64,000 bases of DNA from Magnetovibrionaceae bacterium (lineage in GTDB: Bacteria; Pseudomonadota; Alphaproteobacteria; Rhodospirillales; JBMYSY01): the NCBI GenBank assembly GCA_049603795.1, contig JBMYSY010000015.1, positions 47,531-111,530 of the forward strand, written 5' to 3'. Made by a program: the position numbers and the translations under genes. Of this stretch, positions 1 to 62,496 are shown piece by piece. Below the pieces are notes generated by a model. That model saw only the letters and a list, made by a program, of their open reading frames with translations, made no database searches and was not told where the DNA came from. Each line of letters begins with the position of its first letter. The first letter of the stretch is position 1.

Positions 1-3000
1 TTGCCGCCAGCGCAGCCCGTGCCGCCGTGCAAGAGGCCTTCCTGACCACCGAGGCCCAATACAACATTGCTCTAAGCCAGTCCGCCTTGGCCGAAAGCCT
101 GGAAGCCCGTGTTTTGGCGACCAACGACGCGGACGAGGCGGAATCCCTGGCGGAGGAAGCCCAGGCCGCACGGGAGGCTGCGGAACTGGCCTCGACCCGG
201 GCACGCATTGCTTCCGAGAACGCGGGCTCCGCGGCCAAGGGGGTCGAGGGCCGGGAAGTCGCCGACTTGGCGGATGAAGCCTCGCAACTGGCCGAGGAAG
301 CCGCCGAATTCGCCGGGACGGCGGAACGGTCCGCCAACAATGCCAGCGACCGGGCGGACGATCTTCGTGCGGCTGCCGATTTGCTGGATGTTCAAAATGC
401 GGCTGACGAAGCCGCTGCCGCCGCCAAGGCAGCCGCCGAGGCCGCAGCCCAACAGGCCGCGGATGACGCCCGGTCCAGTGCCGAGGCTGTCGTGCAGGCG
501 AAGGCTGATGCCGATGCGGCTGCGGAGGTTCAAGTTCAGGGCTTTGCCGACGAGGCGGCAGCCCAGGCCCAGATCGCCCAGGATCAGGCAACATTGGCAA
601 CGACGGCGGCGAACGAAGCCGATGCCGCTGCGGCCCGGACAGCGGCTGATGCGGCGCAGGCGGCAGCCGACAAGGCGCTCGCCGCCTCCAATGCCGCTGG
701 CGAGGCAGCTGCGGGGGCCGGTGCGAACGCCCAGGCGCAGGCTGCTGCGGCGGCTGCCTCGGCGGCCCAGGCTCAGGTGCAATCGGGCTCGGCTTCTGCT
801 GCTGCGACGGCCGCGGAAAATGCGGATGCGGCTGCGGATGCTTGGCGAGATGACTCGGCAACGACCGATCGGGCGGCCGCCGTGGCTGCAGCCTTGTCGG
901 CGGATTCGGTTGCCGATGATGCTTCCATTGTGGCCGTGGCTTCGGCGAACACGGCTTCGAGCGCTCTTACGGCCACTGTGCAGCCACTGGTCGATGAGGC
1001 TGCGGCGCTGGCGACCCAGGCGGCCCGTGCCACGGCGCTGACAGATGCCCAGGCCCGATACAATACGGCTCTCAACGACGGGTCCAGTCTGGCTGTCCGC
1101 AACGCCTGGGAAGCGGCACGCGACGCGGCGCAAACAGCCTTGAACGATGCCAATGCGGCAGCCACAAAGGCCAGCGCGGCTGCTCGCGCGGCGGAAAACA
1201 CAGCGGATCTCGCCCAGCAGGATGCCGATGCTGCTGCCGCTTCGGCGCTGTCCGCGCGTGCTGTTGCGGCGGACGCGGCAGAGAAAGCCGGGTTTGCCAT
1301 CGCTTTTGAAGAGCAGGCGCGTGGTGCCGCGGAACGGCAAGCAGACGCGGCCCTGGATGATGCCTTCAGCGATGCCGAATCGGCGGCCAGTGACGCGGCG
1401 CAAGCGGTCGAAGATGCCCTGACGGCTTTGAACAATGCCGAGACGGCGGCCAATCAGGCTGCTGCGGTCATCGATGCCGGCGGCAATATCGACCATACCG
1501 ATAATGCGGGCGACATGGCCGACATTCTGGCCGCTGTCCAGGCGGCCACAGCGGCCGTGACGGCGGCCCAGACCGCGCTGACGGCGGCCAATGCCGCGAG
1601 GACGGCAGCGGATACGGCGCTGACCCTGGATGATCGCGCCAGCCTGGTCATCAACCGGGCTTCTGCAACGGCGACCTCCAACGAGGTCACGACCCTGCAG
1701 ACCGGTGCATCGGACGCCAAGGCGGCGGCAGACGCGATCCTCCAGGCGGCGAATTCCTACGAGGACCTGGTTCGCGTCCTCGCAGGCGATCCTGCCTATG
1801 GCGGCGAAACCCGGACAGACGCCGAAAATTCAGCTGCCGCAGACGATGCAGCAGCCCGAACGGCAGCAGACGGCGCGGTTGATCAGGATACCATCGATGC
1901 CGCACGGTCCGCCTCCCAGTCGGCTGCGGCTTCCGCGCGGGATGCCGATGTGACGGCAGCCGAAGCGGCGCTGACAGCGACACAGACGGCTCAGGCAGCG
2001 GCTGAAGCCTCCCGCGATGCGGCGCAGACATCCTTGAGTGCGGCCACCACGGCGCACAACAACGCCATCGCCGACGCGACGGCAGCGACCCAGGCCTACG
2101 ACGATGCCGTGGCCGCAGACGTCAACAATGTGGATCGGGAAGCCGTGGCCAAGGCCTTGGCGGCCCGGGATCGGGCTATCCAGGCGCGCGACAATGCGGC
2201 GGATGCCAAAGCGGATGCCCAGGCAGCCTATGACGAGGCCTTGGTGCAGTTCACCATTGCGGACACCGCGCTGAGCGACGCAACCCAGGCCGTGTCTGAC
2301 GCGCAGGACGCGCAAACCAATGGCGAGCCGACGGCGGGTTTCCGGGCGGTTGCCGAGGGTGCACAAGACAAGGCCGAACAGGCCCAGGCTTCGGCTACTG
2401 TTCAACAAACGGCTGCTGCGGCCGCAGCCACCACGGCCTCATCCGAGGAAACAAAAGCAGACACGGCCCGATCCGACGCCGAGACCGCAGAGGCCGAGAC
2501 CCTGGCTTCCGTCGACGCGGCAGCCGCCCGCGGGACGGCGGATACGCAACTGGGCATTGTTCAGGCCAGGTTGGCGACCGCTAACACGGCGCGGGATACG
2601 GCGGCGACGGCAGCGCAGGATGCTCGCACGGCTGCCAATCAGGACCCGCCGGATGTGACGGCAGCGAATGCGGCCTTGACCTCGGCAAACACAGCCGTCG
2701 ACAGCGCCACGGGTGCGGTGACCGATGCCCAGGCTGCGTTGACTGCTGCCAGGACAGCTGCCGAAGCGGCCGATGCGGCAGCCGCACGTTCTGATGCGGG
2801 GCCGGTGGCCACGGCGCAGGCCACGGCTGCCAATGCCGCAGTGACCCAGGCGGAAAGCCTGGTGACGGAAGTACTGGCGGCCCGTGCAGCCGCCGTCGCT
2901 TCCCAAACGAACGCCCAGGCCCAGGTCGATCTGGCCGAGGCCGATGCGGCGGACCGCGCGGCAGCTATCGAAGCGGCCAACGGTGCAGCGATCTCGGACG

Positions 3001-3540
3001 CCAAGGCGGCAGCCGACGAGGCCGCAGACGCGGCGGAGGCTGCAGCCACAGCGGCAACCGCTGCCTACAATTCGGCTTTGGCGCACTTTAATGATGCGAC
3101 AGCCGATCTGGCGGCCTTGAATGCGACCCCGGTCCCCTCGGACGCCGACCAGGCGACGGCGCGGACCACGGCGATTGCCAATGCCACCGCCGCCGTCGCG
3201 GAAGCCGAGGCCGCGAAGGACGAGGCGAATGCTGCTGCCGGCCGGGCCAATACGGCTGCCGGCCTGGCGCGCGCCGCATCCGATTCGGCAAATGCGATTT
3301 CGGGCACGGCCGGTAGCGACGTCACGGATGCCCAGGGCTTCGCCACGACCGCCGCCGGTCAGCGCGATACCGCCGAGGATGAAGAAGCCCTGGCCGAGGC
3401 GCAGGAAAACCGGGCCGAACAGGCCGCCGGTCGGGCCGATGCCCAGCGGGAAGATTACGAGCAATTGCTGGCCCAGGCAGCCCAGGAAGCCGCCGAGGCA
3501 GCGGCCCAAGCCGCCCGTGACGCCCAGGCGGATGCCAAGG
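1..3540 (+). other. Ala-rich low-complexity, probably alpha-helical stalk region of the giant protein (at least ~1,170 aa)
   Basis: The translation is dominated by Ala with D/E/Q/T/S/N/R and has very few Pro, Gly runs or aromatics. Examples: AAAAAKAAAEAAAQQAADDARSSAEAVVQAKADADAAAE, and TAAQTALTAANAARTAADTALT at ~1561-1626, where Thr/Ala fall in a 4-3 spacing. It ends abruptly at DAKDDTHTINEDEADL (~3541), where the first cadherin-like unit starts. Confidence 0.7.
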
Positions 3541-6500
3541 ACGATACCCATACCATCAATGAGGACGAGGCAGACCTCGCCGATCTCACCATCTCTGTCC
3601 TGGCCAATGATAAGCGGGCAGACGGGGGCAATCTGGTCGGCGGCGAAGTGGTCTCCGTTGGTGAGACCGCCAACGGCGGAACGGTAACAATCGCCGATAA
3701 CGACACCGATGTGATCTATCGCCCGGCGGCCAACTTCTCGGGCACGGATACCTTCACCTATACAGTCCGGGTTCAGACCGGGACAGATGGTGGGGGCCAA
3801 CCGGTCTATTCCTTCTCGACCGCCAAAGTGACCGTCACGGTTACGGAGGTAAACGACGCGCCGACCCTGAAAGCCGACGTCGGGACCGTCTCGGATGAGG
3901 TTTCGACCATTACCATCAATGTTCTGGCGAACGACAGCGATCCGGAAAACCAGACCCTTTCGATCACGGGCGTCGGCAGCGGCGACGACCCCGCGACCAT
4001 CGATCCGTCGAATGGCGTTGTGGCGATCACCGCCAATGGGCGTGTGACCTATACCCCCAATGCGGGCGATTTCGATTATCTGGCCAAAGGCGAGACGGCG
4101 ACGGATACCTTCACCTACACCGCATCTGACGGTAGCGGTGGAGTGGCCACGCAGACGGTTGTGGTGACGGTTACCGGCACCAACGACGGACCGGTCGCGA
4201 GCAGCCTGACCGTTTCCGGCAATGAAGAAACGGATATTCAAGGAACGGTCTCGGCCACCGATGCCGACACGGGGGCTTCCATCACCTATGCGGTCACCTC
4301 GACAGGTGGACCCTCTAATGGTTCCGTGGTGATGAATTCGGATGGCAGCTTCACCTACACGCCCGACGATGACTTCGCCGGGACCGATACCTTCGTTTTC
4401 CGTGCAACCGACAATGAGGGCGCGACCTCCGACGAAACGGTCACCGTGACGGTCAATGACGTGAACGACGACCCGATCGCGACGGACGACACGGCGAGCG
4501 TAAATGCCGGTGCTTCCGTTACCTTCGACGTCTCCACCAATGATAGCGACCCCGATCCGGACACGACGCTATCGGTCTATTCCACGGGGAATGCGGCGTC
4601 CGGGTCGATATCGGTGAACGGCGGCGAGATCACCTATACGGCGGATGGCAGCGGCCTTGATGCCCTGGCGGCGGGCCAGAACCTTACGGATACCTTTGAG
4701 TATACCATCGAAGATGGCGACGGCGGCTTTGATACCGCTACGGCAACGGTCACCATCAACGGTGTCAATGACGCACCTGTTGCCGGCGATACACAGACGT
4801 CGGCGGATGAAGGCGGCAGTGTCACCGTCTCGGTTCTCGACAATGTAACCGATGTCGATACCGGCGACACGAAACGTCTGCAGTTGATCGGGCAGGGGAC
4901 CTACGGCGACGTCGCCATCGCGGCAAACGGTACGGATGTCACCTATACCCCCGATGACGACTTGACCAATTCTCTCGCTGTCGATCAGGTCCAGATCGAT
5001 ACCTTTACCTATACGGTGGTCGATGGTGCCGGTGCGACCGATGTGGGAACGGTGACGGTCACCATTCAGGGTACCAACGACGCGCCCATTGTCTCGGCGA
5101 GCCTCTCCGATCAGACGGCTGAAGAAAACAACGCCTTTTCGTTCACCGTGCCATCCGATGCTTTCACGGATGTGGATAGCGGGGACAGCCTGACTTACGC
5201 TGCGACGCTTGAAGACGGCTCGGCGCTGCCCGGTTGGCTCAGCTTCAACCCCTCAACGCGGGTGTTTTCGGGCACCCCGGGCAATTCCGATCTGGCCACT
5301 CTATCGGTCCGCGTGACGGCGACGGATGGCCAAAGTGTCAGCGTTTCCGATGTCTTCTCTCTGTCGGTTACGGAAACCGACGACCAGACCATTGTCGGTG
5401 ACGATACGGACAACGTGATCACACCGGGGGCGGGCAACGACAGCGTCGATGGTCGGGGCGGAACGGACCGGGTGATCTTCTCCGGGCTTGCGGCGCAATA
5501 TACCATTACCGATAACGACGACGGGACCTACACCGTCTCGGGCCCGGACGGCGTCAACGAACTGCAAAACGTCGAGGAACTGCAGTTCGACGATCAAACC
5601 ATCACGGTCGGTCGCGGCAGTACGGGGGCTGACCAGTTCCAGGGCGGCAGCGGCAGCGACAACTACAACGGCGGCGCTGGTGACGATGTTCTGGATGGCG
5701 GAGCCGGTGACGACATCCTTAAAGGCGGCGCGGGTAACGACAGCGTCCTGGGCGGAGAAGGTAACGACCAGCTGATCGCCGGTACCGGCAACGGCGACGA
5801 TCTCTACGACGGGGGGACGGGGTCCGACTGGATCACCTTCCCCAGCACCTCGTTGGGTGTCAGCGTCGATCTGGCCAACGGGACCGCCAGCGGTTCCGAA
5901 ATCGACAACGACACCATCACCAACGTCGAAAACGTCCTCGGTGGATCGGGCAACGATACGATCCTGGGCGACGGACAGGCCAACTCGCTCCTCGGCGGCG
6001 ACGGCAATGATTTTCTATCTGGTGCCGGCGGGGTTGATGCTCTGTTGGGCGGCGATGGTGATGACACCCTGAAGGGCGGCCTGGGGACGGATTTTCTGAC
6101 CGGCGGGGCCGGAACGGATCAATACCAGTACACCCAAGGCGACGGTCGGGACACGATCCTGCAAACCGGCGACGACAGCGGGGCTGACTGGGTCAATTTC
6201 CTGGGTGGTACCTATGCCGACGTGGATTGGGGCCGGTTGGGCGACGATCTGCTGATCGCGGTCAAGGCTAGTACGTCCGACGGAATTTCGACGAATAACC
6301 GCATCACGGTTTCCGGTCACTACACCACCACGGTCAGCGGCATCGCCTACTTCGAAGCCGATACGAACGAAAACAGCTTCTATTCGCAAGACGGTTCCAC
6401 GACGCGGATTTTCACGCCCGATACGCTCTCGGGTGCCGATCAGGGCATCTATACCGAGCTTCTGCAGGGGACCAACTTCGCCGACACCATCACCGGTGGC

Positions 6501-9500
6501 GGCGGCTACCGCGATTACCTCTTCGGCTATGGCGGCAACGATGTCCTTGAAGGGTCCGATGTCACGCGGGATGAACTGCGTGGCGGCAGCGGAAATGACG
6601 TCCTGCGCGGTCGAAGCGGCGATGACCGCCTGCGCGGCGATGCCGGCAACGATACGCTGGACGGCGGTGCCGGTAACGACATGGTTCGCTATGACAGGGC
6701 GAGCGAAGGGGTCACGGTCGACCTGACGGTCCAGGGTGCCGGAAACGCGCAATCCATCAGTTCCGGCCAAGGCAACGATACGCTGATCGATATCGAAAGC
6801 ATCCGGGGGTCTGACTTCGCCGACACCCTGACCGGCAGCAGTGCGGCCAACACCATCGACGGTCGGGCCGGCAACGATGTGATCAACGGAGGTGCGGGCA
6901 ACGACGTTCTGATCGGCGGCAGCGGCACGGACCGGGCCATCTTCTCCGGCTCGATTGGGGCTTATTCAATTACCCATAGCGCCTCCAATCTCACGGTCAT
7001 TGGGCCGGACGGGACGGACGTCCTCCAAGACTTCGAACAGCTGACCTTCGATGAAGGCACCTATGACCTGCTGATCGGCTCTGCCGGCAACGACACCCTG
7101 GCTGCCGGGACCAATCCGGCGATCTTCTTTGACCTTGGTGGATCGGACAGTTTTACCGGCGGCTCAGGTGCCGACTGGATCGTCTATAGCACCTCGGCAA
7201 ATCTGGCCATTGACTTGGGCCAGGAACAGTCGGTCGCCGGATCGGATGTGGATGATCTTTCCGGCATTGAAAACGCCGTCGGGGGATCGGGCGACGATGT
7301 CTTCCGGGATGGCCTCGGCAACAACATCATGTCGGGTGGCGATGGTGCCGATACCTTCTTCGCTTTCACCGGCAATGACACGATCCTGGGTGGTAGTGGA
7401 ATTGATACGGTCGTCTTGTCGCCGACCGAAATCCTGACCAATGCCACACGCAGCGGCAACGATCTGGTTCTGACCTATCTCGATTACGCGGCGACGAGCT
7501 ATACGATAACGGTGCCCGGACAATATGGCCCCGGCGGCAACCTTGAAATCTGGCAAGACGTCGGAACCGATGGCTCCACGGATTACAACATTCTGGGCAG
7601 CCTGACAGGTGGATCGGGCGATGATCTTTTGGTCGGCACGGGAGGCGCAGATTCGATCACCGGCGGTGACGGCGCAGACATCATCTATGGTGGTGCAGGA
7701 GACGACAGCATTCTGGGCGGCGACGGTCTGGACTTCATTGATGGCGGGACCGGGACCAACAACCTGGATGGCGGATCCGGTATCGATATCCTGTCCTACC
7801 AAAACGCCTCGTCGGCCGTTTCGGTCAACCTGATCAGTGGAACGGCGGCCTCTTCGGACGGCAGCATTTCGGATACGGTCTCTAACTTCGAGGCCGTGTT
7901 TGCCTCGGACCATGCGGATACCCTCCTCGGCAGTACAGGCTCCGATATTCTCTATGGCGGAGCGGGCGACGACACCATCGCAGGCGGCGGCGGGGCGGAT
8001 TCCCTGGATGGCGGCGACGGCGACGATGTGCTGTTGTTCAGTGGCTCGGAGAACATTCACGGCGATGACGGCCAGGATACGGTAGAGGTCCTCTCAGGGG
8101 CCGATCTGGACCTGACCTCTGCAATCCTGTCGGAAATCGAGGCCATCCAACTGGCGGATGCCGCCTCCCAGACGGTTACACTGGACGCGGACAGCGTCTG
8201 GTATTCGGTCGATGAAAACAATGAGCTGATCATCAAGGGCGACGATTCCCATACGGTTCGGAATGTCGGGGACTCGTTCGGTCTGGCCGGTCTGGAAACC
8301 ATCGAAGGCCAGGACTATTCGGTCTATACGGGCGAATACAACGGCGAAACGGTCACGCTGAAGATCGATGATGATATTTCCCTCGAAGGTTTCTCGGCCG
8401 CGCCGGTGATTACCGATCCGGGAAGCAGCCTCAACCTGGACGGGGCGGACGATTACATTTCGCTTGGCGATCCCACAGCCACGGACCTGGAGCCGGCCGG
8501 AGACCCCTTTAGTGCCTCTGCCTGGTTCTACTTCGATCCGACCCAGACAGGGGACCGGGCCATTCTCTCTCTCGGCAATGATGAGAGCGCCACCGAGGGC
8601 TTTAGTGTTTTCCTGAGTGGTTCCGGAAGCAGCACGGAACTGGTTGTCCGGGTGAATACGGGCGGCGGTGTTCAGAGCCGGATGGCTGCCAGCCACATTG
8701 AGATGCCTAGCGAAGAAGGCTGGTATCATGTGGCCATGGTCATCGATGGCTCAAGCGCCAGCGGCGAAGACCAGTTGCTCGGTTACCTGAATGGGTCCAA
8801 CTCAGGCTGGGTGCCGGGATATGGGTCAATCTCCGAAGACCGCCTGACGATTACCAGCTCCGGGATCGAGGGCAACGGACGACAGTTGCTGATCGGTGCC
8901 AGGGACGCCGGAAATGATGGGATCGAGGATCATTTCACCGGTGCCATTGCGGATGTTCAGTTCTGGGACAAGACCCTCAGCGCCGAAGAGGTCATCGATG
9001 TCTTACACGGCAACGTGGACAATGCCGACGCCGATCTGCTGGCCCGCTACGACTTTGCCGACAGCGCCGATTTCGGTGCCGACATCGCGACCGCCAACGG
9101 GACCTTCAGCGGGGTGACAACCGGTCAACCGACCCAGGGGACCTTTGCCGAGCCGAACATCTTTGTGGAGGGACAAGGTGCCATCCGGCCGCTTACCGGC
9201 CTGGCGTTTTCCGATCCCGACAGCACCACCTTCGACGGTGGTCAGTTGGATGTGACGATGACCGGACGATCCGGTTCCGACTCCTTCATTCTCTACAACG
9301 GTAACGGCATCACTTTCGGTGCCAACGACGCCGTGCTCTACAACAATGTGACGTTCGGTACCCTGTCGAACTTCTTCCAGGGCCGGGTCACCCTTGACCT
9401 GAATGCCAATGCCGATATCGCTGCGGTCCGCGCCTTCGCCGGAAACATTGGCTTCAACAATTCGACCGAAACGCCGACAGCCGGTTTCCGGACCATTGGG

Positions 9501-12500
9501 ATCACCTTCGATGACGGTGATGGCGGTGTTCTGCAGGACTTCGAAAAGTCCATGTACGTCAGCCCGACAAACACGGCTCCGGAAATCCAGACCGGCATCG
9601 CGTCGAGCGAAGAAGAAGTCCTGATCGGTACCACCACCACCGAGGACCAGTCGCTGCCGGAAGCCGTTCAACTGGCCGATGGCAATGTCTTTGTGGTCTG
9701 GCGGAACGAACGGGATGGTTCGGGTGTCAACGATGTTGGCGGGATTTCGGGCAGCATCATCGATCCGGAAGGATCGACCGTCGTTTCCGAATTCCTGGTC
9801 AGCACCAGCCAGAATTTCTTGCAGTGGCGTCCGCAGGTAACCGAGTTGGCAAACGGCGACATTGCCGTCGTCTGGGTCAGCCGGCATTCAGGCGAAGACC
9901 TGATGGCGCGCATCTATCAGCCCAATGGCCAGCCGCGGACCAATGAACTGACGCTTTCCGACAATACGGTGGGTGATTCTGCCGGCGGAACGGGTATCCC
10001 ACAGATCCTGTCGCTGGATGGCGATGGTTTTGCTGCTGTCTGGATGACGGGCGGGGATATCAAATATCAGAAGTTCTCGGACCTCGGGGTTCCGGATGGC
10101 ACACCATCGACGGCCAATACGATCACCACGGGGACGCAGAACCGTCCCCATGCCGTGGCCCTCGATGGCGGAGGCTTCGTGGCCAGTTGGCTGGATGAGA
10201 ACCTCGGCATTCAGGTGCGCCGCTTCAATAACGACCTATCACCGGCGGATACGGTGGAGATCTCGGTCGATGCCGTGCCCAGCGGAAGCGAGGGCTATTC
10301 AGCGGTCGCGCCCGTCGCCGGCGGTGGATTTGTCGTGGCCTGGGTCGATGGCACCTCGGTCTATGCCCGCCTGTACAATGACGCTTCAGCGCCCCTCGGG
10401 TCCGAATTTGTGGTCGGAATCGCGACGGCGATCAGCGGACCGATTGATCTGGTAGCCGATCAGGACGGGAATTTCGTCGTCCACTGGCAGGACGTGACAG
10501 GCGGTGCCGACGCCAAGGAATCCATGTTGGCCCGCTTTACCAGCGATGGTGCCTTGCTGGGTGATGCCATCAGCATTGCGGAACATGCCGATGGCGATCA
10601 GGCCAATGCCAAGATCACGCCCCTGGATGACGGGCGGTTGTTCGTTGTCAGTGATACCGCGAGCACTGACGGCGGCTATGAATCGGTCGACGTTGTCTAT
10701 CGGATTTTCGATCCGGGTTTCTCAGGCACCTATGTCGAGGATGGCGCTCCCCTGCAGGTCGACCCTGGCTTCCTGGTAACGGATGTGGATTCGGGCGATT
10801 TCGAAGGCGGCTCCCTGACGGTTCAGGTCACCGAAGGCGACGACGGTGGCGATGTCCTGACCATTGCGGACGAGGGTAGCGGAACCGGGCAGATTGGCTA
10901 CCTGAGTTCGGCCGGGACGGTTTTCTATGAAGGAGACCTGATCGGGACGGTGACGGGCGGCGTGAACGGTCAGGCCCTGGCCATCTCCCTCAACGATGCG
11001 GCGACACCGGAGGCGGTCAGCGCTCTCGGTCGCGCAATTCTGTTCTCGAACGAGGCCTATGAGACGGGGAGCGACGACCGGACCATAACCTTTACCGTCA
11101 ACGACGGTCATGGCGGCCCGACGCCGAGCGCGACGATCTCCAAGGCGGTCCAGATTTCGCCCTCAAACGATGCGGCCACCCTGTTCGAGCCGCCGATTAC
11201 GCATAGCCTATCCCTTGATGGGGCCTCCTATATCGATCTCGGCGACCCCTATAACGACTCGTCGCGTGAACCCCTGTCGCCGGACAACGATCCCTACACG
11301 GTCGAGGCCTGGTTCTACTATCACCCGGACCACAGCGGGACGCGCTCCATCGTTTCCTGGGGCAGCCAGACCTATGATCAGGAAGGCTTCAACATCTTCC
11401 TGACGGATGCGGATTCTGATGGGGTCGATGAACTGGTCGTTCGCGCCCACACCTCGACCACCACGAGCCAGAGCCAGATCGGTGCCAGCCATATCGAAAT
11501 GCCCCAGGAGGAGGGCTGGTACCACGTCGCCATGGTGATCGACAGCGATAACGGCAATGCGGACGACACCATTATCGGCTACTTGGACGGGGACAGCAGC
11601 GGCTGGACCGCAGGCCATGACAGTGTCACCGACGATCAGATTGACCTGACATCGTCCGGCATTGATCCGAAAACGGGGGTGAGCGTTGCCATCGGTGCTT
11701 CGACCGACAGTGACGGCAATCCTGGCCAGTATTTCACCGGCGAGATCGGCGACGTGCGCTTCTGGCGCGAGGCGCGGACAAGGGACGAAATCGAAGACGG
11801 CATTCAAGACGGCGTGGCGAGCGATGCGGCCAACCTGGAAGCGCGATATCTGTTCAGCGCTCCGGAAGGACCGGAAGTGGATGCAACCGGGAATGTGCCG
11901 GATGGCCTTTCCGTCGGATCGCCCGGCGTTTTTGTTGGGCTGGGCATTCCCCTGTTCATCGAAGGTGGCTCTCCGGCGCGGGTCGGCAGCGAGGTCAAGG
12001 TTGATGACCCGGACAGCAGCGATTTTGCCGGTGGTACGCTCTCGGTTTCCATTACGGCCGGGGTAACAGGCGATACCCTGACCATCATCGATGGCGGCAC
12101 GGACGGCGTCCAGATTTCGGGCAGCAATGTTCTCTATCAGACCGCTTCGGTCGGCACGTTGGTCAGCACGGGAACGGATTCAACACCGCTTGAAATCACA
12201 TTGAACGCGAATGCCACGCCTTTGGTGGCCGAGGCGATTTTCGGTGCCATCGGCTTCGCGGCTGGTTCTGACGCGCCGGGTTCGAGCCGGGACCTGACTT
12301 TCTCGCTGACCGACAGCGCCGGCGGTGCGGCGGCGCAGTTGAACCAGACGGTCTATATCCAGGAACAGAACGACGCGCCGGTCATTGCGGGCAGCGATGG
12401 ATCGGCCTCGGATGAGGCCCGGGTCGGGACCAACTTCGCGGGCGATCAGACCCATGTCTCCGCGGCTGAACTGCCGGACGGCAACGTCTTCATGGTCTGG

Positions 12501-39500: not shown

Positions 39501-42500
39501 ACGCGCGAAATCTTCGAGCGCGGCGGCGGATCCTCCCACGCGCTTCGGGTCAACACCAACGGGGCGCTGAGCTGGTATGTCTACCAGGGTATCTCGATGT
39601 CTTCGAGCGCCGGAGATGTGACGACGGGCGGCTGGCACCATGTGGCCGCCACCTTCAAAGACAACGAATCCGCATACCTTTATGTGGATGGCGAGGAAGT
39701 CGCCTCCACGACTTCCGGGGTCGGGACGTCCTGGAAGTCCGGGACCACGGCGGACTTGGGACGGGGCTTTGACGGGCAGTTGGCCGACATGCGGGTCTGG
39801 AGCGTTCAGCGCAGCCAGGCCGAAATCCAGGCGGACATGAACCACTTCCTGAACCCCGATACCACCGTCGGGCTTTCTGCGAACTGGCGCTTCGAAGACG
39901 GTGACTCGGCTGTCACGGCAGAGGATGAATCCAGCAGCAACCTGGATGCGACGCTGAACAGTGCTTCGCTGGAAGACACCACGCGTGTCCAGGCGACGGC
40001 AGATATCATCACGGCGGAAGATTCGGCCTATGGCGGCGTGATCCAGGTCGATCAGGTCGATGGCGTCACCTACACCTATGGCGTAGCCGCCAATGGCGAT
40101 CCATCCAATGGCACGCTGACCGTGGACGCGAACCTCGGCACCTTCGTCTACACGCCGGATGCCAATTACAATGGCTCCGACAGTTTCACTGTGACCGTGA
40201 GCAATGGCACCCTGACAACGACGAAGACCATTACCGTTTCGGTCACATCGGTTGAAGACCGTGTGACCTCTGACGTCACCGACTCTGGCGGCACGCCGAT
40301 CACGTCGTTCAGCACGGACGAGGATACGCCCTACGCCGGCAAGGTAACCGCCGTCGATCCGGAAAACACCACGCTCACCTATAGCGTCGATACCGACCCC
40401 GCCCACGGAACGCTGACGATCAATTCCTCGACCGGGGACTGGACCTACACGCCGGACGAAGAATACCGGGGTTCGGATGCCTTCGCGATCAAGGTCGTCG
40501 ACGGGGCGGGGCTGTCTTCCCTGAGCGAGATTTCCGTTGCGGTGAATTCTGTCGACGATGCGCCTGTGATCACCGGTGTCCGTTCCGACGATGGTCCGCT
40601 GACCTTCGATGGGTCGGATGACGTGCTCTCCGCCTCCGCGGTCAGCTTGGGAACGGGCGACTTTTCGCTGGAAGCCTGGATCTGGATCGATCCGGCGGCA
40701 ACCGGCGAGAACACGATTCTGGATACTCGGGACAACTTCACCGGCGTGGTGTTTGGCGTGAGCTCTTCCGGCACGTTGGCACTGGGCCTGAATGACGGAA
40801 CCAATTCGGTCGAGTTGTTCGGGACCACGGCGATCCAGGAAGCCCAATGGGTCCATGTCGCTGCCACGGCGGATCGGTCCGGGAATGGTTCACTGTTCAT
40901 CAATGGAACCGCTGAAACGCTGAGCGGCGGCGGAACGACGAAGGATGTTTCCTCAGTAAACCTGACCTTGGATGGATCACAGCCGACGTTGATCGGCGGG
41001 CCGAGCGCCAATTCTACGGCGACGACCTGGGACCCGTTCCACGGCAAGATTTCCGATGTCCGGGTCTGGTCGGATCTGCGAACCTCGACGGAAATCTCGG
41101 ATGCCGCATCCGGAGATGCTCTGGCCGACAGTACGGGGCTTCTGGCTTCCTGGGATCTGGAGGCCGTGCGCCAGGGCAAGGTTATCGATACTTCCGGCAA
41201 TGGTCATGATGCCACGCTTGGCGCGGATGCCGGGGCCGGTTCGGACGATCCGTCGCAAACCGTCACCCATTTCGAACGGGCTGCGACCTTTGAGGGGCAA
41301 ACCAGTTCGCGTATCGATATCGCGGACAGCAGTGGCGACTACAACACCAGCGAGTTCACGGTCGAGGCCTGGATTTATGTCGATGATCTGAGCTCGAGTG
41401 CGACAATCTTTGACCGGGGTCCGGGAACATCCCACAGGCTGACCCTGAATACCAATGGCTCGCTCTACTGGTATGTGTATCAGGGCGGGACGGCGACGTC
41501 CCCGGCGGGCTCGGTGACGGTCGGGGAATGGATTCACGTCGCGGCCACCTTTACCGATGACGACTCCGCCTACATCTATGTGAACGGCGAGGAGGTTGCC
41601 TCTGATACCTCCGGTATCGGAACCTCCTGGAAGGGTGGTTCATCGGCCCTGATCGGCGAAAATCTGGATGGTCAGATGGCGGACGTCCGGGTCTGGAGCG
41701 AGGCACGAACCCAGGCCGAAATCCAGGCCAACATGAATACCTTCGTGGATGCCGGTTCCAACCCGACCCTGCAGTCAAACTGGCGTCTGGATGACGATGC
41801 GAACAGCACGACCGCAGTGGATTCGGGCAATGCCGGGAACAACGGTGGCCTGAACGGTTCTTCGTCCATCAGTACGGCCCTGCCGCCCAGCTTCGTGAAC
41901 GCGGCTGACGGTGTTTACACCGATGAAATGACGGTGCTGGAAAATGTGGCCTTTGAAGGATCCGTCGGCTCGCCGGACGGCGACAAGGAAGGTCTGACGT
42001 TTGACCTGGCCAGTGGTGGCGAGCCGTCAAACGGTACGATCACGCTGGACGGCGGGACCGGTCAGTTCACCTACACGCCGGACGACGACTACACCGGTGC
42101 AGACAGTTTCACGGTCGAGGTGTCGGACGGGACAACGACCACCTCCAAGACCATCTTGGTCAAGGTGGCGGCTTTTGACGAAGCGCCTCAACTGCAAGGC
42201 ATCGCCGCAGATCTGCCAGTCCTGCAGTTCGATCCGGACGAGACCATTATCGGCGGTGTGCGTGGCACCTCCGACGCGCTGGCGATCATCGGCGATATGA
42301 CCCTGGAAGGCTGGATCAATCCGCGCGAATTGCCGACAGGCTCCGACATCTACCTGATTGCGAGCTTCCGGGGCGAGGGTGATACGGCGGCGGCCAACGA
42401 GCTCTACTCCATCGGGCTGAACGCCGCAGGCGATCTGGTCTACCAGCACGAATACGCCAACGGGTCGAAAGAAACCCATGTCTGCGATGCCAACCTGACA

Positions 42501-45500
42501 GCAGGCGATTGGGCGCATATCAGCCTTGTGCGGGACGACACGGGATCGGGCGGTACGGTTCAGCTTTATGTTGATGGTCAGGCCGCCGATACGCCGAAGA
42601 CCTATACCAATTCACCCACCGGTGGGGCGGACAGCGAGTTCTTCATGGGGCTGGCCGGGACCGACGTTAAGGGCTTTGACGGTCAGATGTCAGGCCTGCG
42701 TCTCTGGAGTGAGGCGAGAACCGCAACGGAGGTCGAGGCAGCCTACGATCAGGTCATCACCGACCCAACGGCCGAGACGACCCTCGTGGCCGACTGGCGA
42801 ACCAGCGAAGACGAACTGCGCACGCTCACCGACCAGACTGGTAACGGTAACGCGCTGGTGGTCGGCAACATCACTTCTGCTGCCGAACACAACGTCAACA
42901 CACTGGCGAGCTATGTCAGTTTTGATGGTGTTGATGATGCGGTTCGGATTGCATCGGCCGACCTGACGAACCTGAACGGTTCGGCTGCGCAGACCTGGAC
43001 GGCCTGGTTCAGAACTGACGGCAACTGGGACACCGATAACGGCAGCGGCGGCGAAACCGCCATGCTGATGGGCCGGACGGACAGTTCTTCTTCTCTCAAT
43101 GGCGTCAATGTCCTGATCAGCAAGACGAACGGGGCCCTATCCGTCGAAGCCAAATCCGGTACGACGTCCGTTCATTCGACCTCCGACACCTCCACAGACG
43201 TGACAGACGGCGAGTGGCATCACGTTGCCGTTGTAATGGATCCGGATCTTGGCGCGGACGGTGCGCTGACACTGTATGTGGATGGTCAGGAAGCCGGCAG
43301 TTCCACGGGAGCCGGTACCTGGTCCATGAACGGCAACGACTTCCGTATCGGTGACTCCCTTGTCCAATACTGGGAAGAGTTCGTTGGCGATGTTGCCGAA
43401 GTGAACATCTACACCGGCAGCCGGTCGGCGGCTGAGATCGCCGCCGAAGCCCAGGCGGGTGTCTATCCGGATGACAACACGCTCGCCCTGCAACTCGGGT
43501 TCGATCAGGGGACGGGCGGTACGGCCTTCAACAGCGCTGTGGGCACTGGTGCTTTCGCGGACGGCCACGGGACCCTGTCGGGTGGAACCGTCTGGCACAA
43601 TGCGGCACCATTGGGGATCACAACGGCCAATGCCAAGGGCCTGGACCTGAATGGCACCTCGACCTCGGTCGGCATCAGCAGTGTTACTTTGCCGAACAAT
43701 GCTTTCACTGTCGGCCTCTGGGCAAAGCTGGATTCTTCCAGCGGTTACGAAGATCTAATCCGGCTTGGTGGGACCGATGGGGCCTTTGCGATTTCGGTTG
43801 GCTCTGAAGGCGAGATCCAGTTCTCCGTCGGCGACGGTGTCTCTGGCGATACGGTCAACAATGCGGGCAACCATGGTTGGCAGTATGGCGAGTGGCATCA
43901 CTGGACCTTGTCCTATGACGGGTCGACGGCAACGCTATTCATGGACGGCGCTGCGGTCGCAAGCGTCTCCCCCATCAGCCTGACCGTTTCGGATGCGGAT
44001 GGTGCCATGACCATCGGCAGCGGTGCGGGCTTCGCGGACGGCATCATCGGCGAGGTGACGCTGTTCAATGCCGCCATGCCATCAGATCAGATCGCAGAGC
44101 TTCAGTTCGGCCCCAGCGATGATACCTTGCCCTATCTGATCGGCCATTGGCCGCTCGACGAAGGCACGGGAACCATCGCCCGTGACATTTCGGGCAATGC
44201 CAATCACGGAGCCATCACGGACCCGGTCTGGAGTGAAGCTGCGGCACCTGCAGTCAGCCAGGTGCAATTGGTCGAAGAGGATCAGGCGGTTCGTGGCCAG
44301 TTCGTGATTGTTGATCCGGACGGCGGTTCGACGACGATCTCCAGCCTGACGGTCAGCGATCAGCCGGACAACGGCTCGGTCACGGTGACCCAGGTCGCGA
44401 GTGGTGTTTACGAATACGTTTACAGCGGGAACAAGGACTTCAACGGGACCGACAGCTTTACGGTCACCATGACCGACAGCAACGGCCTGGAAAGCCAGCG
44501 CACCGTGACCATGGACGTGCGGCCACGCAACGACGGCCCGGACACCGGTCAGCCGGGTGGCGCGCTGGACTTGGGGGCGACCGACTATCTGCACAGCTCG
44601 AATACGGCTTTCAATCCGGGGACATCGGACCTCACGGTCGAAGGCTGGTTCTATTACGATGGAACGAACCCCAACGCGACGCGCACGATTGTTTCCAAGG
44701 GCAGCGGGACGACCCTTGATCCCGGCTGGAACATCGCGATCGACGACGATGGCTCCACCAGCACGCTCAGCATCAAGGTTGCCGGGGTTGGCGGGAACGC
44801 TGTCACGCTGGACAAGGATCTGACGGGTAATATTCAGACCGGTTGGCACCATGTTGCCATGGTCATCGACCAGACGGCGGATACCGTGACCGCCTACTTG
44901 GACGGCTCGACCAGCGGGTTCAGCGGCAGCCAGGACCTCGGTGCCCTGACGACAACCATTACGACCACAAAATCGTTCGTGGTCGGTGCCGAGGACGAGA
45001 CAGGATCGTTTAGCGCACACTTCAAAGACCGGGTCGACGAGATCCGCGTCTGGAGCGAGGCGCGCACGGAAGATCAGATCCTGGAGAACATGGAGAGCAT
45101 CATCTCTTCCAGCTCCGAGTCGAGCCTTGTGGCGCAGTACAGCTTCGAGAACGCGTCCAGCCTGGGCCAGGATTCCGCGGACAGCTCTGCGATCAATCTC
45201 ACGGCCCAGGGCGGTTCTCAGGCCGGTGCGCCGCCGGCCATGGCACCGTTCCACAACGAGGTGTTGGATGTCGCGGGCGACGGCTATGTCAGCCTGTCCG
45301 GTTCAGCAGATCACGATCCGGGCACCGGCTCGGTGACGGTCGAGATGTGGTTCCAGAACTTCGATTCCAATGGCAGCCGCCATTACCTGATCGACGAGGG
45401 CAACCTCTACTCCGCCTATATCGAAGACGGCACCCTGGTGGTCGATTTGACCACGGATACGCCGGCCAGCAATGCCAACAGTGCCCAATGGCGCTACGAA

Positions 45501-48500
45501 CTCGGTACCCAGGATGAAGACTGGCACCACCTGGCCCTGGTCATCGACCAAAGTGGCTCCAGCGGCGAATTCCGGGCCTACCTGGACGGCGCGGCGACGG
45601 GCTGGACCCAGGGTGATTACAACAGCAGCTTCACCAAGGGCACGCTGACCGATTCAGCCAGCCTGGTGTTCGGCGCGAATTCGGGTGGTCTGGAAGGCTT
45701 CGACGGTCTGATCGATGACGTACGAGTCTGGAATTTGGCCCGCACGGAAGCCGACATCGCCAAGGACATGGACCGCAATCTGGAAGGCAACGAGACCGGT
45801 CTGACCGGCTATTGGACCTTCGACGAAGGTGTCGGCACCCTTGTCTATGATCTTGCAGGAACCCACAACGGGACTGTCACCAATGGCGAATTCCTGAGCC
45901 AGCGCAGTCAGGTCCTTGTGGAACCGGGCGATCCGATCAGTGTCCGTCTCACCGCAGCCGATGTGGATGGTGACGAGCTGACCTACAGCATCACCTCTGT
46001 CACCGGCGGTGCCGCCACCGTGAACGGTGACAGCGGCGTCATGACCTTTACCGCACCGGAGACAACGGGCAATTACACGGTCAACTATCAGGTGACGGAT
46101 CCGGATGGGCGCTCCAACACGGGTTCGGTGTCGTTCAGCGTCGCCCTGCCGGAAGTGGCGATCCAGGGGGCGGAGGCCGATACCACCGTTCTACAACTGG
46201 ATGGCCAGAACGATTTCCTCGATGTCCAGGGCGATCTCGGCACACTGGAAGACTTCACCTTCGAGACCTGGATCAACCTCCGCGAATTGCCGCCGACCTC
46301 GAATGACCTCTATTCGCTGCTCTCCCAGAACGGCTGGGCTCTGGGCGATCTGCACGTGAACATTCTGAGCGACGGCACGATCGAATTTGCCCGCAACGGC
46401 GATAACCCATATGCGACGACGAGCGATCTGTTCACCGGATCGGGCCAGGGCCTGTTGAACCAGTGGGCCCATGTGGCGATCGTGGCCGATGGATCGGCCA
46501 ATACCTTTGATATCTACGTGAACGGCGATCATCTGGAGACCGTCAACGATACCATCGGCGGTACCTTCGACCTGTCAGATGCTTCTTTGGGCGCCTGGCA
46601 GGCCGACAGCGGACTCGTGAGCCGCCATCTGCCAGCCTCGCTCGATAACACGAGGCTCTGGTCCGATGTGCGCAGCGCCGACGAAATCAAAGCCAGTTTC
46701 CAGCTTTCCGATCCGGTTTCCAAAGACAACCTGACAATGAACCTGACCTTTGATCAGGAATCGGGCGGGGCCTACGTGGACAGTTCCGGCAACAGCCACC
46801 ACGGTGCCTTTACCGAGCGGGCCGGCGCTGGCCAGGCTGGCGCGCCGAACGGCTATGCGACCGCACTGAACGGCTCGACGGACTACATCGTTACGGCAGC
46901 GACGGGAACCTATACGGATTTCACGGTCGAATCCTGGGTCCGCGTCGATACGATGCCGGGCAGCGAGGATGTTGATGTGCTGTTCGGAACCGACAATTTC
47001 GTCGGTGGCGACTTCACGGTTGATCTGTATCACAAGTCCGGCGACGGCAAGACCTACCTTCGCTATGCACCGGGTGTCGGGGCTGGAAGTGCGGTCGCGG
47101 AAGTGGAAATCGACCCGACGACGTTTGAAGGTCTGTTCAACCATGTTGCCGTTAGCTACGACGCGAACAGCGATACGATGAAGTTTTATGTCAACGGCAG
47201 CCTCGTGCATACGGACAGCCCCTACGGTATCGCTGCCGTGCAGGTCGATGGTTTCCGAGTGGGCACCTATAATGACGGAACGAGTAATGCCCGGTTCCTC
47301 GATGGTGCTTTTAGTGATGTTCGCTTCTGGTCGGATGTTCGCAGCGAGAGCGACATTCAAAACTCGATGTATACCGATACGCCGACCAATGCCGACAATC
47401 TGGTCTTCAATTACAAGCTGGATGGTCAGGCGGACGGTGGCGTTGCTGACAGTTCCGGCAATTCGAACAACGGCACGATCCAGGGCCAGGCCGGGACGAT
47501 TGTGGGCGGTGTCCAGGAGCTTTCGCCGCCGCCGGCAGCGCTGACTTTCGACGGTACGGATGACCGCATCGAAGTCACGGACCTGCAGGCTGCTCAGAAT
47601 GCCTTCACCTTCGCCTTCTGGGGGAATGTGCAGTCGTCCTATGCGGGTTCGGCCCACGACTACGCCATTCAGTGGGGCGACAATGGCGACAACAGCGCCC
47701 TGCGGTTCGAATATGGGCCGGAAGGTACGATTTTCGCTTCCATCGGCAACGGCAGCACCCTTGTCGAACACTCGGGCGTTGGTGTGGATGTGGGATGGGG
47801 CTACGACGAATGGCACCACTGGGCGGTCAGCTACGACGGCAGTCGGGTTACCATCTACATGGATGGTCAGGAGGTGAACTCCTTCGCGGCCACGCTCGAT
47901 ATTACGGGGGCCGACGGCAAGCTGCGCGTGGGCGACGGTTACACGACCGGAGCTGAATTCGATGGCCAGATGGCGGACTTCCAGTACTGGTCCACGGCGT
48001 TGGGTTCCAGCGCGATCAGTGCCGTCAAGAATGGCAACATCACCGGGAACGAGGACGGCCTGGGGCTTTGGTGGCCGATGCAGGAAGGCTCCGGAACCGA
48101 TCTCTTCGATGCTTCGGGTAATGGCTTCGATGCAACGGTGACGGGGGCAACATGGGCGGCGGATGCCAACCCGGATGTCCACGACGAACAGGCCGTTGTC
48201 GAGGCTTTCCAAGGAGCCCCAGTTACCGGTCAGGTGGCAGCGACGGATCTTTCCGGCGACACGATCACCTTCTCGGCTTCCGGTGCCGACGGAGGGGCGG
48301 AGTTCGGCACGCTGACGGTCGGCTCGACCGGTATCTACACCTACACGCCGGATGACGGCTTCTTCGGTACCGATTCCTTTACCGTGAAGGTGACCGCCGG
48401 GGGCGAAGAGGAGTACCAGCGGATCACGGTCAACGTGGCCCCTGCCGGGGATCGCGAAATCGATAGCATATCCGATTTGGACGGCATCAACGGCTTCGAG

Positions 48501-50444: not shown

Positions 50445-50473
50445 ACGGTTAGACGTTTTAGAGTTCAGGCACC

Positions 50474-51616
50474 ATGGCGAAAGCAAGTACCACAGCGACC
50501 GCGAAAGCGCGCAAATCCCCCACCAAAAAGCCGCGGAAACGCTCGGCAAAGGCTGAACCCGCGCCTGCGCCATCTGGCGAATTTCAGATTTATGCCTCGC
50601 CACACTTTGCGGGCTGGCTGCACGAACAGAACGTTAGCCTCGGCTTCACGACCTATCAGGCCGGTAAGTTATTTCTGATCGGACTGAAAGAAACCGGTCA
50701 GATCTCGGTGGAGGAACGTTCCGTTGACCGCTGCATGGGCATCGCGGCCCATGACAACGCGCTCTATGTTTCGAGCGACTATCAGATTTGGCGGTTCGAG
50801 AATGCGCTCCTTCCGGGCCAGACGGTGGATGGCTATGATCGTGTCTACCTGCCCAAGACCAGCCATGTCACCGGCGCGATTGACGTACACGAGATGGACC
50901 TGGACGGCGAAGGCTATCTCGTTTTCGTCAATACCAAGTTCTCTTGCATCTCGACTTTGAATGACCGCTATAGCTTCGAGCCCATCTGGTGGCCGCCCTT
51001 TATCTCAAAGCTGGCTCCGGAAGACCGTTGTCATATGAACGGCATGGCGCTGGTTGATGGCCAACCCTCCTATGTTACGGCCGTCGCTGCCACGGATACG
51101 CCGGAAGGGTGGCGGGAAAGACGCACTGATGGCGGCGTGGTGATCGATGCCTTCGAAAACGAGACGGTCCTGGGCGGGCTCTCCATGCCGCACAGCCCCC
51201 GCTGGCACCGCAATGGGCTCTGGCTGTTGGAATCGGGTACCGGTTGGTTTGGCCGCGCTGACCTGGACGCGGGCGAGTTCGAAGAAATCACTTTCTGTCC
51301 GGGCTATGCGCGCGGCATGGCAATGTATCGGAACTATGCCGTTGTCTGCGTCTCGCAGCCCAGGGACGAGGCGACCTTTGGCGGCCTTCCCCTCGATGAC
51401 AATCTTGAGCGGGCAAAACTGAAAGCGGCCTGCGGCATTCTGGTGATCGACATCGAGCGGGGCGAGATCGTCCACTGGCTTCGGCTAGACGGCCCCATCC
51501 AGGAACTCTTCGATATTGCACTGATGCCTGGCGCAACGCGCCCGCGAGCCGTGGGCTTCAAGGGCGACGAGATCAAGTATGCCGTCTCCCTGCCGCCGAC
51601 GGTGGATGGCGGCTGA
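50474..51616 (+). CDS. TIGR03032 / DUF4915-family protein of unknown function, with a Lys/Arg-rich N-terminal tail
   Basis: A 380-aa ORF begins 29 nt after the giant gene's stop. Motifs I recognise from this family: F.GWL.E..VSLGFTTYQAGKLFLIG, YQIWRFENAL, FVNT.FSC, PPFISKLAPEDRCHMNGMA, LSMPHSPRW..G.LWLL.SGTG, FCPGY.RG. The N-terminus MAKASTTATAKARKSPTKKPRKRSAKAEP is strongly basic. Confidence 0.8.
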   Translation: MAKASTTATAKARKSPTKKPRKRSAKAEPAPAPSGEFQIYASPHFAGWLHEQNVSLGFTTYQAGKLFLIGLKETGQISVEERSVDRCMGIAAHDNALYVSSDYQIWRFENALLPGQTVDGYDRVYLPKTSHVTGAIDVHEMDLDGEGYLVFVNTKFSCISTLNDRYSFEPIWWPPFISKLAPEDRCHMNGMALVDGQPSYVTAVAATDTPEGWRERRTDGGVVIDAFENETVLGGLSMPHSPRWHRNGLWLLESGTGWFGRADLDAGEFEEITFCPGYARGMAMYRNYAVVCVSQPRDEATFGGLPLDDNLERAKLKAACGILVIDIERGEIVHWLRLDGPIQELFDIALMPGATRPRAVGFKGDEIKYAVSLPPTVDGG

Positions 51617-51756
51617 AGAAAAAGGTCTCTTCTAAGAGACGATTATGGTCAATCTGATAGTCGTTGCTAGGCGAAATTAAACCTAGACAGTTTTCCTTTC
51701 ATTTCCCAAGTCTAGGAAAATCCCTAAAAATTAAGTAGGCGGAACATACTCCTGAC
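51617..51756 (+). promoter_or_regulatory. AT-rich intergenic region upstream of the chemoreceptor gene: probable promoter, a 7-bp inverted repeat, and a weak hairpin after the preceding gene
   Basis: The local composition is clearly more AT-rich than the flanking DNA. An inverted repeat CCTAGAC (51682-51688) / GTCTAGG (51710-51716) is separated by 21 nt. A short hairpin GTCTCT-tcta-AGAGAC lies at 51625-51640, just after the TIGR03032 stop, with no T-tract. No confident -35/-10 assignment was possible. Confidence 0.4.
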
Positions 51757-54345: not shown

Positions 54346-54348
54346 GAA

Positions 54349-54855: not shown

Positions 54856-54919
54856 GTCGTTGGTTTGAGCGTGATAACGAAAAAGGCTCCGCACCGCGCC
54901 ACATCGGTAAGGCCTGTGA

Positions 54920-56947: not shown

Positions 56948-56948
56948 G

Positions 56949-57581: not shown

Positions 57582-57718
57582 TGCCTTTATACCCCCAAAC
57601 CAAAACAGTGCACTCGGTCGACATTATGCGACCTTCGGTGTGGAGAAGGCAAGATTCCCAAAGTCCGTGAGGGTGGGGATAAGAGCCGAGCTTTGGGAGC
57701 GGGGGCCCTACCCATGAC

Positions 57719-57757: not shown

Positions 57758-57838
57758 GCGTCCCGAGAACATGATCTAAATCGACTGCCGGGTCACGAGA
57801 GTGCCCCGGCTTTGGCCGATCAGGCTCTGGGGCGGACT

Positions 57839-61484
<3,646 letters not shown>

Positions 61485-62486: not shown

Positions 62487-62496
62487 GACCGCAGGC

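Follow-up and report, generated by a model that had tools for sequence, protein, structure and literature searches.

The window analysed here is a 64,000-nucleotide (nt) stretch of contig JBMYSY010000015.1 from a Magnetovibrionaceae bacterium (positions 47,531 to 111,530, forward strand). Its first 50 kb are occupied by a single giant open reading frame (ORF), whose product is referred to below as the giant protein. Frame +3 was free of stops from nt 3 to nt 50441 and closed with a TGA at 50442-50444. It held 16,813 sense codons and remained open at the window's 5' edge. About 529 stops were expected by chance in this frame from its base composition, and the remaining five frames contained 88-693 stops over the same span. 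The G+C content was 0.74 at third codon positions (GC3) versus 0.50 at second codon positions. Codon usage and GC3 were uniform over the whole ORF. The first 3.5 kb had a G+C content of 0.68 because a region with 38.7% Ala is encoded there; its frame and synonymous-codon preferences were those of the remainder of the ORF. No Shine-Dalgarno-like sequence was found 5' of in-frame start codons in the first 4 kb, so the true gene start most likely lies upstream of the window.

The window-encoded part of the giant protein had a calculated mass of 1.72 MDa and a calculated pI of 4.05, with 2,364 Asp and Glu residues versus 571 Lys and Arg residues. Among its 16,813 residues there was one Cys, which lies at amino acid (aa) 14161 (nt 42483) within THVCDANL. 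This acidic, nearly Cys-free character is compatible with unfolded export. A preliminary description of this DNA had reported a single 5'-open ORF of more than 16,805 codons, a product of about 1.7 MDa, and a near-absence of Cys with only HVCDANL at about 42480. All three observations held, the figure of 16,805 being the count from the first GTG (nt 27).

The protein was divided into 19 tiles and compared with Pfam and NCBIfam, and hidden Markov models (HMMs) were then trained on its own modules. BH190 denotes its beta-helix repeat. The resulting map of the ORF was as follows.

3..50444, plus strand: single giant ORF, 16,813 codons plus stop, 5'-open, zero in-frame stops, GC3 0.74.
3..3533 (aa 1-1177, continuing upstream), plus strand: Ala-rich acidic helical region with heptad periodicity; no Pfam or NCBIfam match.
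3534..5357 (aa 1178-1785), plus strand: six tandem Ig-like domains (Big_9 / Cadherin_4 / tandem-95 / VCBS / He_PIG); Big_9 1.7e-75, He_PIG 4.7e-22.
5358..8450 (aa 1786-2816), plus strand: RTX block I; HemolysinCabind 1.2e-71 in 14 stretches, 27 strict GGxGxD motifs.
8451..22463 (aa 2817-7487), plus strand: mixed region with nine LamG_3, Ig-like domains, two Laminin_B and one SibA-like Ig domain, from Pfam and self-trained HMMs.
9690..10742 (aa 3230-3580), plus strand: first copy of an internally repeated insert of about 350 aa, one of a paralogue pair by self-trained HMMs.
12489..13538 (aa 4163-4512), plus strand: second copy of the insert of about 350 aa, the other member of this pair.
22464..34388 (aa 7488-11462), plus strand: BH190 block of about 21 tandem units of about 190 aa, from its period and self-trained HMM; all-beta model.
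34389..36122 (aa 11463-12040), plus strand: RTX block II; HemolysinCabind 1.9e-22 and 1.9e-36, 15 strict GGxGxD motifs.
36123..48431 (aa 12041-16143), plus strand: LamG/Ig array with 14 LamG_3, mostly paired, and one Laminin_B-like domain, from Pfam and self-trained HMMs.
48432..49952 (aa 16144-16650), plus strand: integrin-alpha-like FG-GAP beta-propeller; FG-GAP 1e-32, seven GDxNGDGxDD motifs.
49953..50441 (aa 16651-16813), plus strand: RTX block III and a conserved C-terminal domain of about 130 aa, a putative T1SS targeting region; HemolysinCabind 1.6e-13.

All families matched at E <= 0.01 across the 19 tiles were of structural or binding types, and no catalytic or toxin domain rose above the Pfam cut-off in any tile. 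A catalytic or toxin reading was considered and rejected. The sub-threshold matches to Polysacc_lyase, Sialidase N-terminal domain, Toxin_R_bind_N, Pentaxin and 3keto-disac_hyd all overlapped LamG_3, and judged by their family names they appear to share its jelly-roll fold. By family match, the whole protein contained 23 LamG_3, three Laminin_B, one FG-GAP propeller and about 27 Ig-like domains. The Ig-like domains were scattered as spacers and were not the main contributor to length. For those at aa 1178-1785, NCBIfam gave tandem-95 at 4e-63 and VCBS at 4.7e-31, in agreement with the self-trained HMM map. The 23 LamG domains, all diverged, may bind carbohydrates or other ligands.

Within aa 2817-7487, a supermodule of about 930 aa was duplicated once. 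Each of its two copies carried one of the inserts of about 350 aa between Ig-like domains. The inserts had no Pfam match at E <= 5 beyond noise and no sequence match in the PDB; they may be novel ligand-binding domains. In the second array (aa 12041-16143), each LamG_3 was followed by a conserved spacer motif of about 43 aa, and Big_9 and SibA-like Ig domains alternated. The FG-GAP propeller was 7-bladed with a motif spacing of 171-228 nt, and its PDB sequence matches were the integrin alpha-5 and alpha-V propellers (2.8e-9). The strict GGxGxD motifs of the three RTX blocks numbered 27, 15 and 2, respectively.

For nucleotide repeats in the 50-kb ORF, a seed of 14 nt and a minimum length of 40 nt were used. 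The closest direct-repeat copies shared 88% identity over 43 nt; for most copies the value was 60-80%. At the protein level, the median identity between copies was 23% for LamG (maximum 62%), 23% for BH190 units (maximum 64%) and 27% for Ig-like domains (maximum 45%). The preliminary description had attributed the length to at least 10 families of diverged modules with almost no near-identical nucleotide repeats. Its account of the repeats was confirmed, since no pair exceeded 88% over at least 40 nt and protein identity between copies stayed at or below 64%. The number of families was roughly right; 9-12 were counted, depending on how Ig subtypes are split. Because the ORF contained no near-identical repeats, repeat-driven misassembly of the 50-kb frame is unlikely.

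An independent short-read contig (Logan SRR27204692_273385, 24,785 nt) included part of the giant gene, 5,316 residues without a stop and with the same terminal stop as the window, and it also carried the downstream genes. Matches to other window genes were confined to this contig. A 40-mer from nt 51-90 had no exact match in the genome and metagenome contig collections, and no paper mentioning SRR27204692 was found. Base-by-base comparison covered window 40,474-59,276 only, and these 18,803 nt were identical, including 9,971 bases of the ORF. Its coordinates place the start of the contig near window nt 34,492, and it spans the last ~16 kb of the ORF. This break lies about 100 nt inside RTX block II, at its boundary with the beta-helix.

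These data bear on the possibility that the frame is partly an assembly product, through a join of paralogues or strains or through collapse or expansion of diverged repeats, or that it is real DNA yielding several proteins through internal starts or proteolysis. Such an origin would fit independent support that is limited to window 34,492-59,276, with bases checked over 40,474-59,276, and a contig break near the beta-helix/RTX II junction. However, an accidental open frame of 16,813 codons is extremely unlikely given the number of stops expected, and the ORF holds no repeats close enough to mislead an assembler. The uniform codon usage and GC3, the lack of a Shine-Dalgarno-preceded in-frame start in the first 4 kb, and smaller relatives that keep the same module order also speak for one continuous gene. 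We consider this explanation improbable.

The C-terminus was analyzed for its export type. The last 180 aa matched the RTX and post-RTX parts of hemolysins, serralysins and polyurethane esterases. NCBIfam gave NF033943 RTX_toxin (positions 745-855) at E 8.6e-10 and the serralysin C-terminus at 2.4e-5. GGxGxD nonapeptide repeats were present near the C-terminus, the HemolysinCabind match at 1.6e-13 falling in the last 170 aa. The terminal RTX block also had sequence matches to CyaA, HlyA and AlgE6 chains in the PDB. Hemolysins, serralysins, polyurethane esterases, CyaA, HlyA and AlgE6 are classical substrates of type I secretion systems (T1SS).

When the last 613 residues were used as a query, thousands of proteins combining FG-GAP and RTX were recovered, at about 35% identity. 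The last ~130 aa of the giant protein aligned in register with the C-termini of these FG-GAP/RTX proteins. The homologue P0004 was 37% identical over 99% of the query, and genes for an AprE-type membrane fusion protein (MFP) and an ATP-binding cassette (ABC) transporter lay within 1.1-4.5 kb of its stop. Two other homologues had no such neighbours. Type I secretion is the best-supported export route, because of the RTX and terminal-domain matches, the T1SS neighbours of P0004, the acidity and the near-absence of Cys. As for the secreted fibre proposed in the preliminary description, its T1SS-type C-terminus was confirmed insofar as RTX repeats and a conserved terminal domain are present, and T1SS export was the best-supported route on these grounds; a T1SS gene downstream of the ORF was not found.

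The BH190 block was the module that might point to another route. BH190 had a period of 190-210 aa and 23-26 HMM stretches in the giant protein, where no Pfam or NCBIfam family matched it. A two-unit model built with 12 internal paralogues was all-beta with short regular solenoid strands (predicted local distance difference test score, pLDDT, 92.7; predicted template modelling score, pTM, 0.90). Foldseek comparison with the PDB placed autotransporter passenger beta-helices (TibA, Ag43, Hbp and UpaB) at the top. The E-values were at or above 6e-3 and the TM-scores at or below 0.3, so only the fold class, a beta-helix, is indicated.

The idea that BH190 is an orphan was rejected: a word-index protein search returned nothing, but an exhaustive profile search retrieved 6,294 proteins with E <= 1e-3, 470 of them at E <= 1e-30. 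The word-index search may under-sample long proteins, and its negatives are not readable as absence. All 120 matches that it listed for the C-terminal query were at most 1,073 aa long, though the collection holds proteins of more than 6,000 aa. Judged by these profile matches, BH190 is a widespread, uncurated repeat family of predicted surface proteins. Its members were large, and their C-termini looked, by eye, like those of type IX secretion system (T9SS), PEP-CTERM or RTX proteins. Pfam gave only a weak overlap with PF11765 (Hyphal_reg_CWP), in two of seven tested relatives. The longest of the 150 best BH190 proteins had 6,861 aa; observed lengths are biased downward because assemblies are fragmented. 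Protein P0255 and the autotransporter of locus L002 are both 1,457 aa long. Their identity was considered and rejected, since the sequences differ and the L002 autotransporter lacks BH190.

Export by a two-partner or autotransporter-like (type V) system, or by T9SS or PEP-CTERM sorting, could draw on the resemblance of the BH190 fold to autotransporter passengers and on the T9SS-like, PEP-CTERM-like or other tails of BH190 relatives. The giant protein itself speaks otherwise. Its C-terminus had no match to a beta-barrel, a T9SS C-terminal domain or PEP-CTERM but carried RTX repeats and the terminal domain of FG-GAP/RTX proteins. No Autotransporter, ShlB or TPS family was found in any tile of the window-encoded part, and the near-absence of Cys and very acidic pI suit T1SS substrates. 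A route other than T1SS is very improbable.

The other end of the window-encoded protein was predicted to be helical. The region at aa 1-1177, at least 1,177 aa long, was acidic and contained 38.7% Ala. Compared with shuffled sequences, its residue autocorrelation gave z = 8.6 at offset 7, 5.0 at offset 14 and 4.0 at offset 21, and Ala recurred with a period of 3.45 residues. In a single-sequence AlphaFold2 model of aa 300-799, about 95% of the chain was helical, in helices 60-130 residues long. With a mean pLDDT of only 67 and a pTM of 0.36, the model is credible for the helical content but not for the packing. The region is read as a coiled-coil-like stalk. The word-index protein search, a method that can miss true relatives, found no homologues of aa 1-1200. 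A metagenome scan with aa 1001-1600 recovered only relatives of the Ig domains (30-39% identity) and left the Ala-rich part unmatched.

Two proteins shared the architecture of the giant protein. P0153 (WP_350050758.1) is a 6,861-aa protein of Marivibrio sp., recorded as 'LamG-like jellyroll fold domain-containing protein'. The other, P0125, comes from a metagenome, has 6,230 aa and ends in an RTX-type C-terminus. Like the giant protein, both contained LamG_3 pairs with Big_9 Ig spacers, a BH190 block and RTX motifs; each had 0 Cys. They were 26-31% identical to it over segments of 1,000-2,000 aa. Unlike it, they were 2.4-2.7 times shorter and lacked an Ala-rich stretch with heptad periodicity (Ala reached at most 0.13-0.21 per 300 aa). 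The N-terminus of P0153 passed the Pfam FecR threshold and scored 38.9 bits with retention_LapA (NF033682), under the cut-off of 50.

This N-terminus bears on whether the giant protein would stay on the cell. It might instead be exported by T1SS and released as an extracellular matrix or aggregation scaffold, or act as an S-layer-like or contact-dependent factor, with no cell anchor. Many of the listed FG-GAP/RTX relatives were shorter than 1,100 aa and had Pfam annotations without a retention domain, and many RTX proteins are released ones (PMC6891781). No retention module and no LapG or LapD genes were seen within the window, which also fits release. However, the architectural relative P0153 has an N-terminus like that of FecR and retention_LapA proteins, and proteins that stick out from a surface typically have such a long, rod-like build of coiled coil, beta-helix and Ig spacers. 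We regard release as unlikely, though it is the most plausible of the alternatives considered.

Taken together, the ORF probably encodes the C-terminal at least 16,813 residues of a giant, acidic, almost Cys-free and calcium-dependent RTX/type I surface fibre. Each step of the following mechanism was drawn from sequence features or from established knowledge. The polypeptide would be held unfolded in the low-Ca2+ cytoplasm. Its C-terminal domain would be recognised by a machine of the ABC/MFP/TolC type, and the chain would leave the cell with its C-terminus leading. The terminal RTX block, and then the two internal blocks, would fold outside the cell into Ca2+-bound beta-rolls, which would act as ratchets against back-sliding. 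A Ca2+-driven RTX ratchet has been established for CyaA, and the mechanism proposed here was taken from T1SS and RTX biology (PMC6891781, PMC7493085, PMC5550230). The Ig-like, LamG, beta-helix and propeller modules would fold extracellularly into a fibre of several hundred nm, a rough estimate from typical domain sizes.

In such a surface fibre, the FG-GAP propeller would sit at the distal tip and the coiled-coil-like stalk nearest the cell. The two LamG arrays, 23 domains spaced by Ig-like domains, would be probable glycan or ligand binders, with the beta-helix of about 4,000 aa as a rod between them. The N-terminus beyond the window may plug the outer-membrane channel and so retain the fibre, by analogy with LapA and MpIBP. 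The length would have come from old supermodule duplications rather than from recent identical repeats.

Several points weigh against this surface-fibre interpretation. The scanned C-terminal piece did not match a curated model of T1SS C-terminal targets; T1SS secretion signals are poorly conserved in sequence. The 13.5 kb downstream (window 50445-64000) contained no ABC, MFP or TolC gene. The N-terminus and any retention module lie outside the window. The binding functions of the 'ligand-binding heads' are suggested by family names alone, and a one-polypeptide product is predicted here from the DNA. The first 34.5 kb of the window had no independent assembly support. To our knowledge, no experiment has demonstrated T1SS export of a substrate this long (more than 16,800 residues).

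The rest of the window contained the following genes.

50474..51616, plus strand: DUF4915/TIGR03032 gene, 29 nt past the stop of the giant ORF; Pfam 1.8e-130, TIGR03032 4e-132.
51757-54345, plus strand: CHASE3-HAMP chemoreceptor gene, following the DUF4915 gene on the same strand.
54349-54855, plus strand: CheW gene, after the chemoreceptor gene.
54920-56947, minus strand: PAS-like histidine kinase gene, converging on the chemoreceptor and CheW genes.
56949-57581, minus strand: His_Phos_1 gene, converging likewise.
57839-61484, minus strand: two isocitrate dehydrogenase genes side by side, one for the monomeric type (738 aa) and one for a dimeric-type Iso_dh (406 aa); neither exact protein was on record in the gene-position collection.
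63233-64000, plus strand: ORF open at the 3' edge, with Big_6/Big_13 Ig-like domains and an N-terminal transmembrane segment …LFAIAGIGLAIILVAIGLNFFL…

The neighbourhood of DUF4915 was compared in a small sample of four loci encoding homologues of the FG-GAP/RTX cassette. A DUF4915 gene lay directly downstream of the FG-GAP/RTX gene in two of the four (L025:13057-14103 and L026:12847-13902). In L027 it was 5 kb away (3906-4961), and in L028 it was absent. A further homologue (L002:9977-11086) followed the autotransporter gene in a deltaproteobacterial metagenome-assembled genome. The five DUF4915 sequences had a mean column identity of 64% and shared invariant Cys- and His-containing motifs (EDRCH.NG, SMPHSPR and CPG..RG). 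No sequence relative of DUF4915 was found in the PDB, and no literature on DUF4915/TIGR03032 was found. DUF4915 may be an accessory factor for secreted proteins of the FG-GAP/RTX type. A regulatory link from the chemotaxis-type genes to the adhesin is conceivable. No structured RNA of Rfam was detected in the window at gathering thresholds. The ORF at 63233-64000 looks like a second surface or envelope protein, starting at the end of the window.

If the giant protein is made and exported as one chain, it would raise the size limit of T1SS past the 1.5-MDa MpIBP. HlyA is reported to be exported at roughly 16 aa/s. At this rate, export of the giant protein would take about 15-20 minutes. Its internal RTX blocks would offer a natural test case for staged Ca2+ ratchets. 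The ORF also suggests that a bacterial surface protein can become gigantic through many diverged modules and without identical repeats. Since the length comes from diverged modules, such genes can be assembled from short reads. Two widespread, unannotated elements are offered for family curation and experiment, namely the BH190 repeat (6,294 proteins) and DUF4915 as a neighbour of FG-GAP/RTX genes.

Among the closest known systems is MpIBP of Marinomonas primoryensis, a 1.5-MDa RTX adhesin with about 120 identical Ig-like repeats of 104 residues (PMC5550230, PMC4083281). Both it and the giant protein are giant, acidic multi-domain proteins with Ig-like spacers, a C-terminal RTX region and a T1SS-type end; MpIBP is a Ca2+-dependent surface protein, as the giant protein is predicted to be. 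The ligand-binding domains of MpIBP lie towards its C-terminal part, and the giant protein has LamG and FG-GAP candidates there, by family match only. Unlike MpIBP with its identical repeats, the giant protein is made up of 9-12 module types whose copies share 10-64% identity. It also differs from MpIBP in its two large internal RTX blocks, the beta-helix of ~4,000 aa, the 23 LamG domains and the Ala-rich region of at least 1,177 aa. With at least 1.72 MDa it is the larger of the two; the retention domain is known for MpIBP, whereas that part of the giant protein lies outside the window.

LapA is about 5,000-9,000 aa long, and the giant protein is at least about twice its length. The LapA- and LapF-type adhesins of Pseudomonas (PMC10197612) are large, repeat-rich T1SS substrates with a C-terminal RTX region and signal, a class to which the giant protein probably belongs. 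The domain set of LapA differs from the LamG, beta-helix and FG-GAP set of the giant protein. LapA has an N-terminal retention module, a LapG site and lapEBC, lapD and lapG neighbours, whereas the N-terminus of the giant protein is outside the window and no such neighbours were seen within it. With type V beta-helix proteins the giant protein has only the beta-helix fold class in common.

CyaA of Bordetella is a 1,706-aa toxin. Like the giant protein, a putative T1SS substrate, it carries several RTX blocks that are separate from one another, and the terminal RTX block of the giant protein is similar to it in sequence (7usl, 5cvw, 6sus). Its blocks are all near the C-terminus, whereas the internal blocks of the giant protein are about 4,600 and 14,000 residues away from it. 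Because of this distance, unlike in CyaA, a staged-ratchet role for them is only inferred.

In size, the giant protein is not alone. ORFs above about 15,000 codons had been described as very rare in prokaryotes in the preliminary description, which overstated the case; they are rare, but examples are on record. Chlorobium chlorochromatii has ORFs of 36,806 aa (Cag_663) and 20,647 aa (Cag_665) (bioRxiv 10.64898/2026.03.19.712371), and Omnitrophota proteins exceed 30,000 aa in a survey whose figure includes a 15,000-20,000-aa bin (bioRxiv 10.1101/2023.11.21.568195). Compared by description only, Cag_663 and Cag_665 share with the giant protein a length above 15,000 codons, a long parallel beta-helix and Ca2+-binding sites. 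Cag_663 and Cag_665 are associated with TolC-like genes and belong to surface or inter-cell proteins. They are reported to lack known transport signals and to be dominated by a haemagglutinin-type beta-helix (bioRxiv 10.64898/2026.03.19.712371), whereas the giant protein has an RTX C-terminus and is dominated by LamG and Ig-like domains. With at least 16,813 aa, it belongs to the 'large' gene class (at least 10,000 aa) of the Omnitrophota survey (bioRxiv 10.1101/2023.11.21.568195), and it would be 'giant' (at least 30,000 aa) only if the missing 5' part were very long. UniProtKB holds more than 41,000 proteins of over 5,000 aa, most of them eukaryotic; surface proteins form the second main class among those from bacteria (PMC11573180).

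A bolder proposal is that this protein of at least 1.72 MDa exceeds every RTX/T1SS substrate seen to date and follows a new plan, with a cell-proximal Ala-rich coiled-coil stalk of more than 1,100 aa, internal RTX 'ratchet stations' thousands of residues apart, and a dedicated DUF4915/TIGR03032 accessory that recurs beside FG-GAP/RTX cassette genes. We put this forward tentatively, as an idea that may well prove wrong. Compared with the systems above, the giant protein is an exceptionally large addition to the giant RTX/T1SS-type surface proteins, an already known class. It is unusual in having a helical N-terminal region, internal RTX blocks that lie far apart and a highly heterogeneous set of modules.

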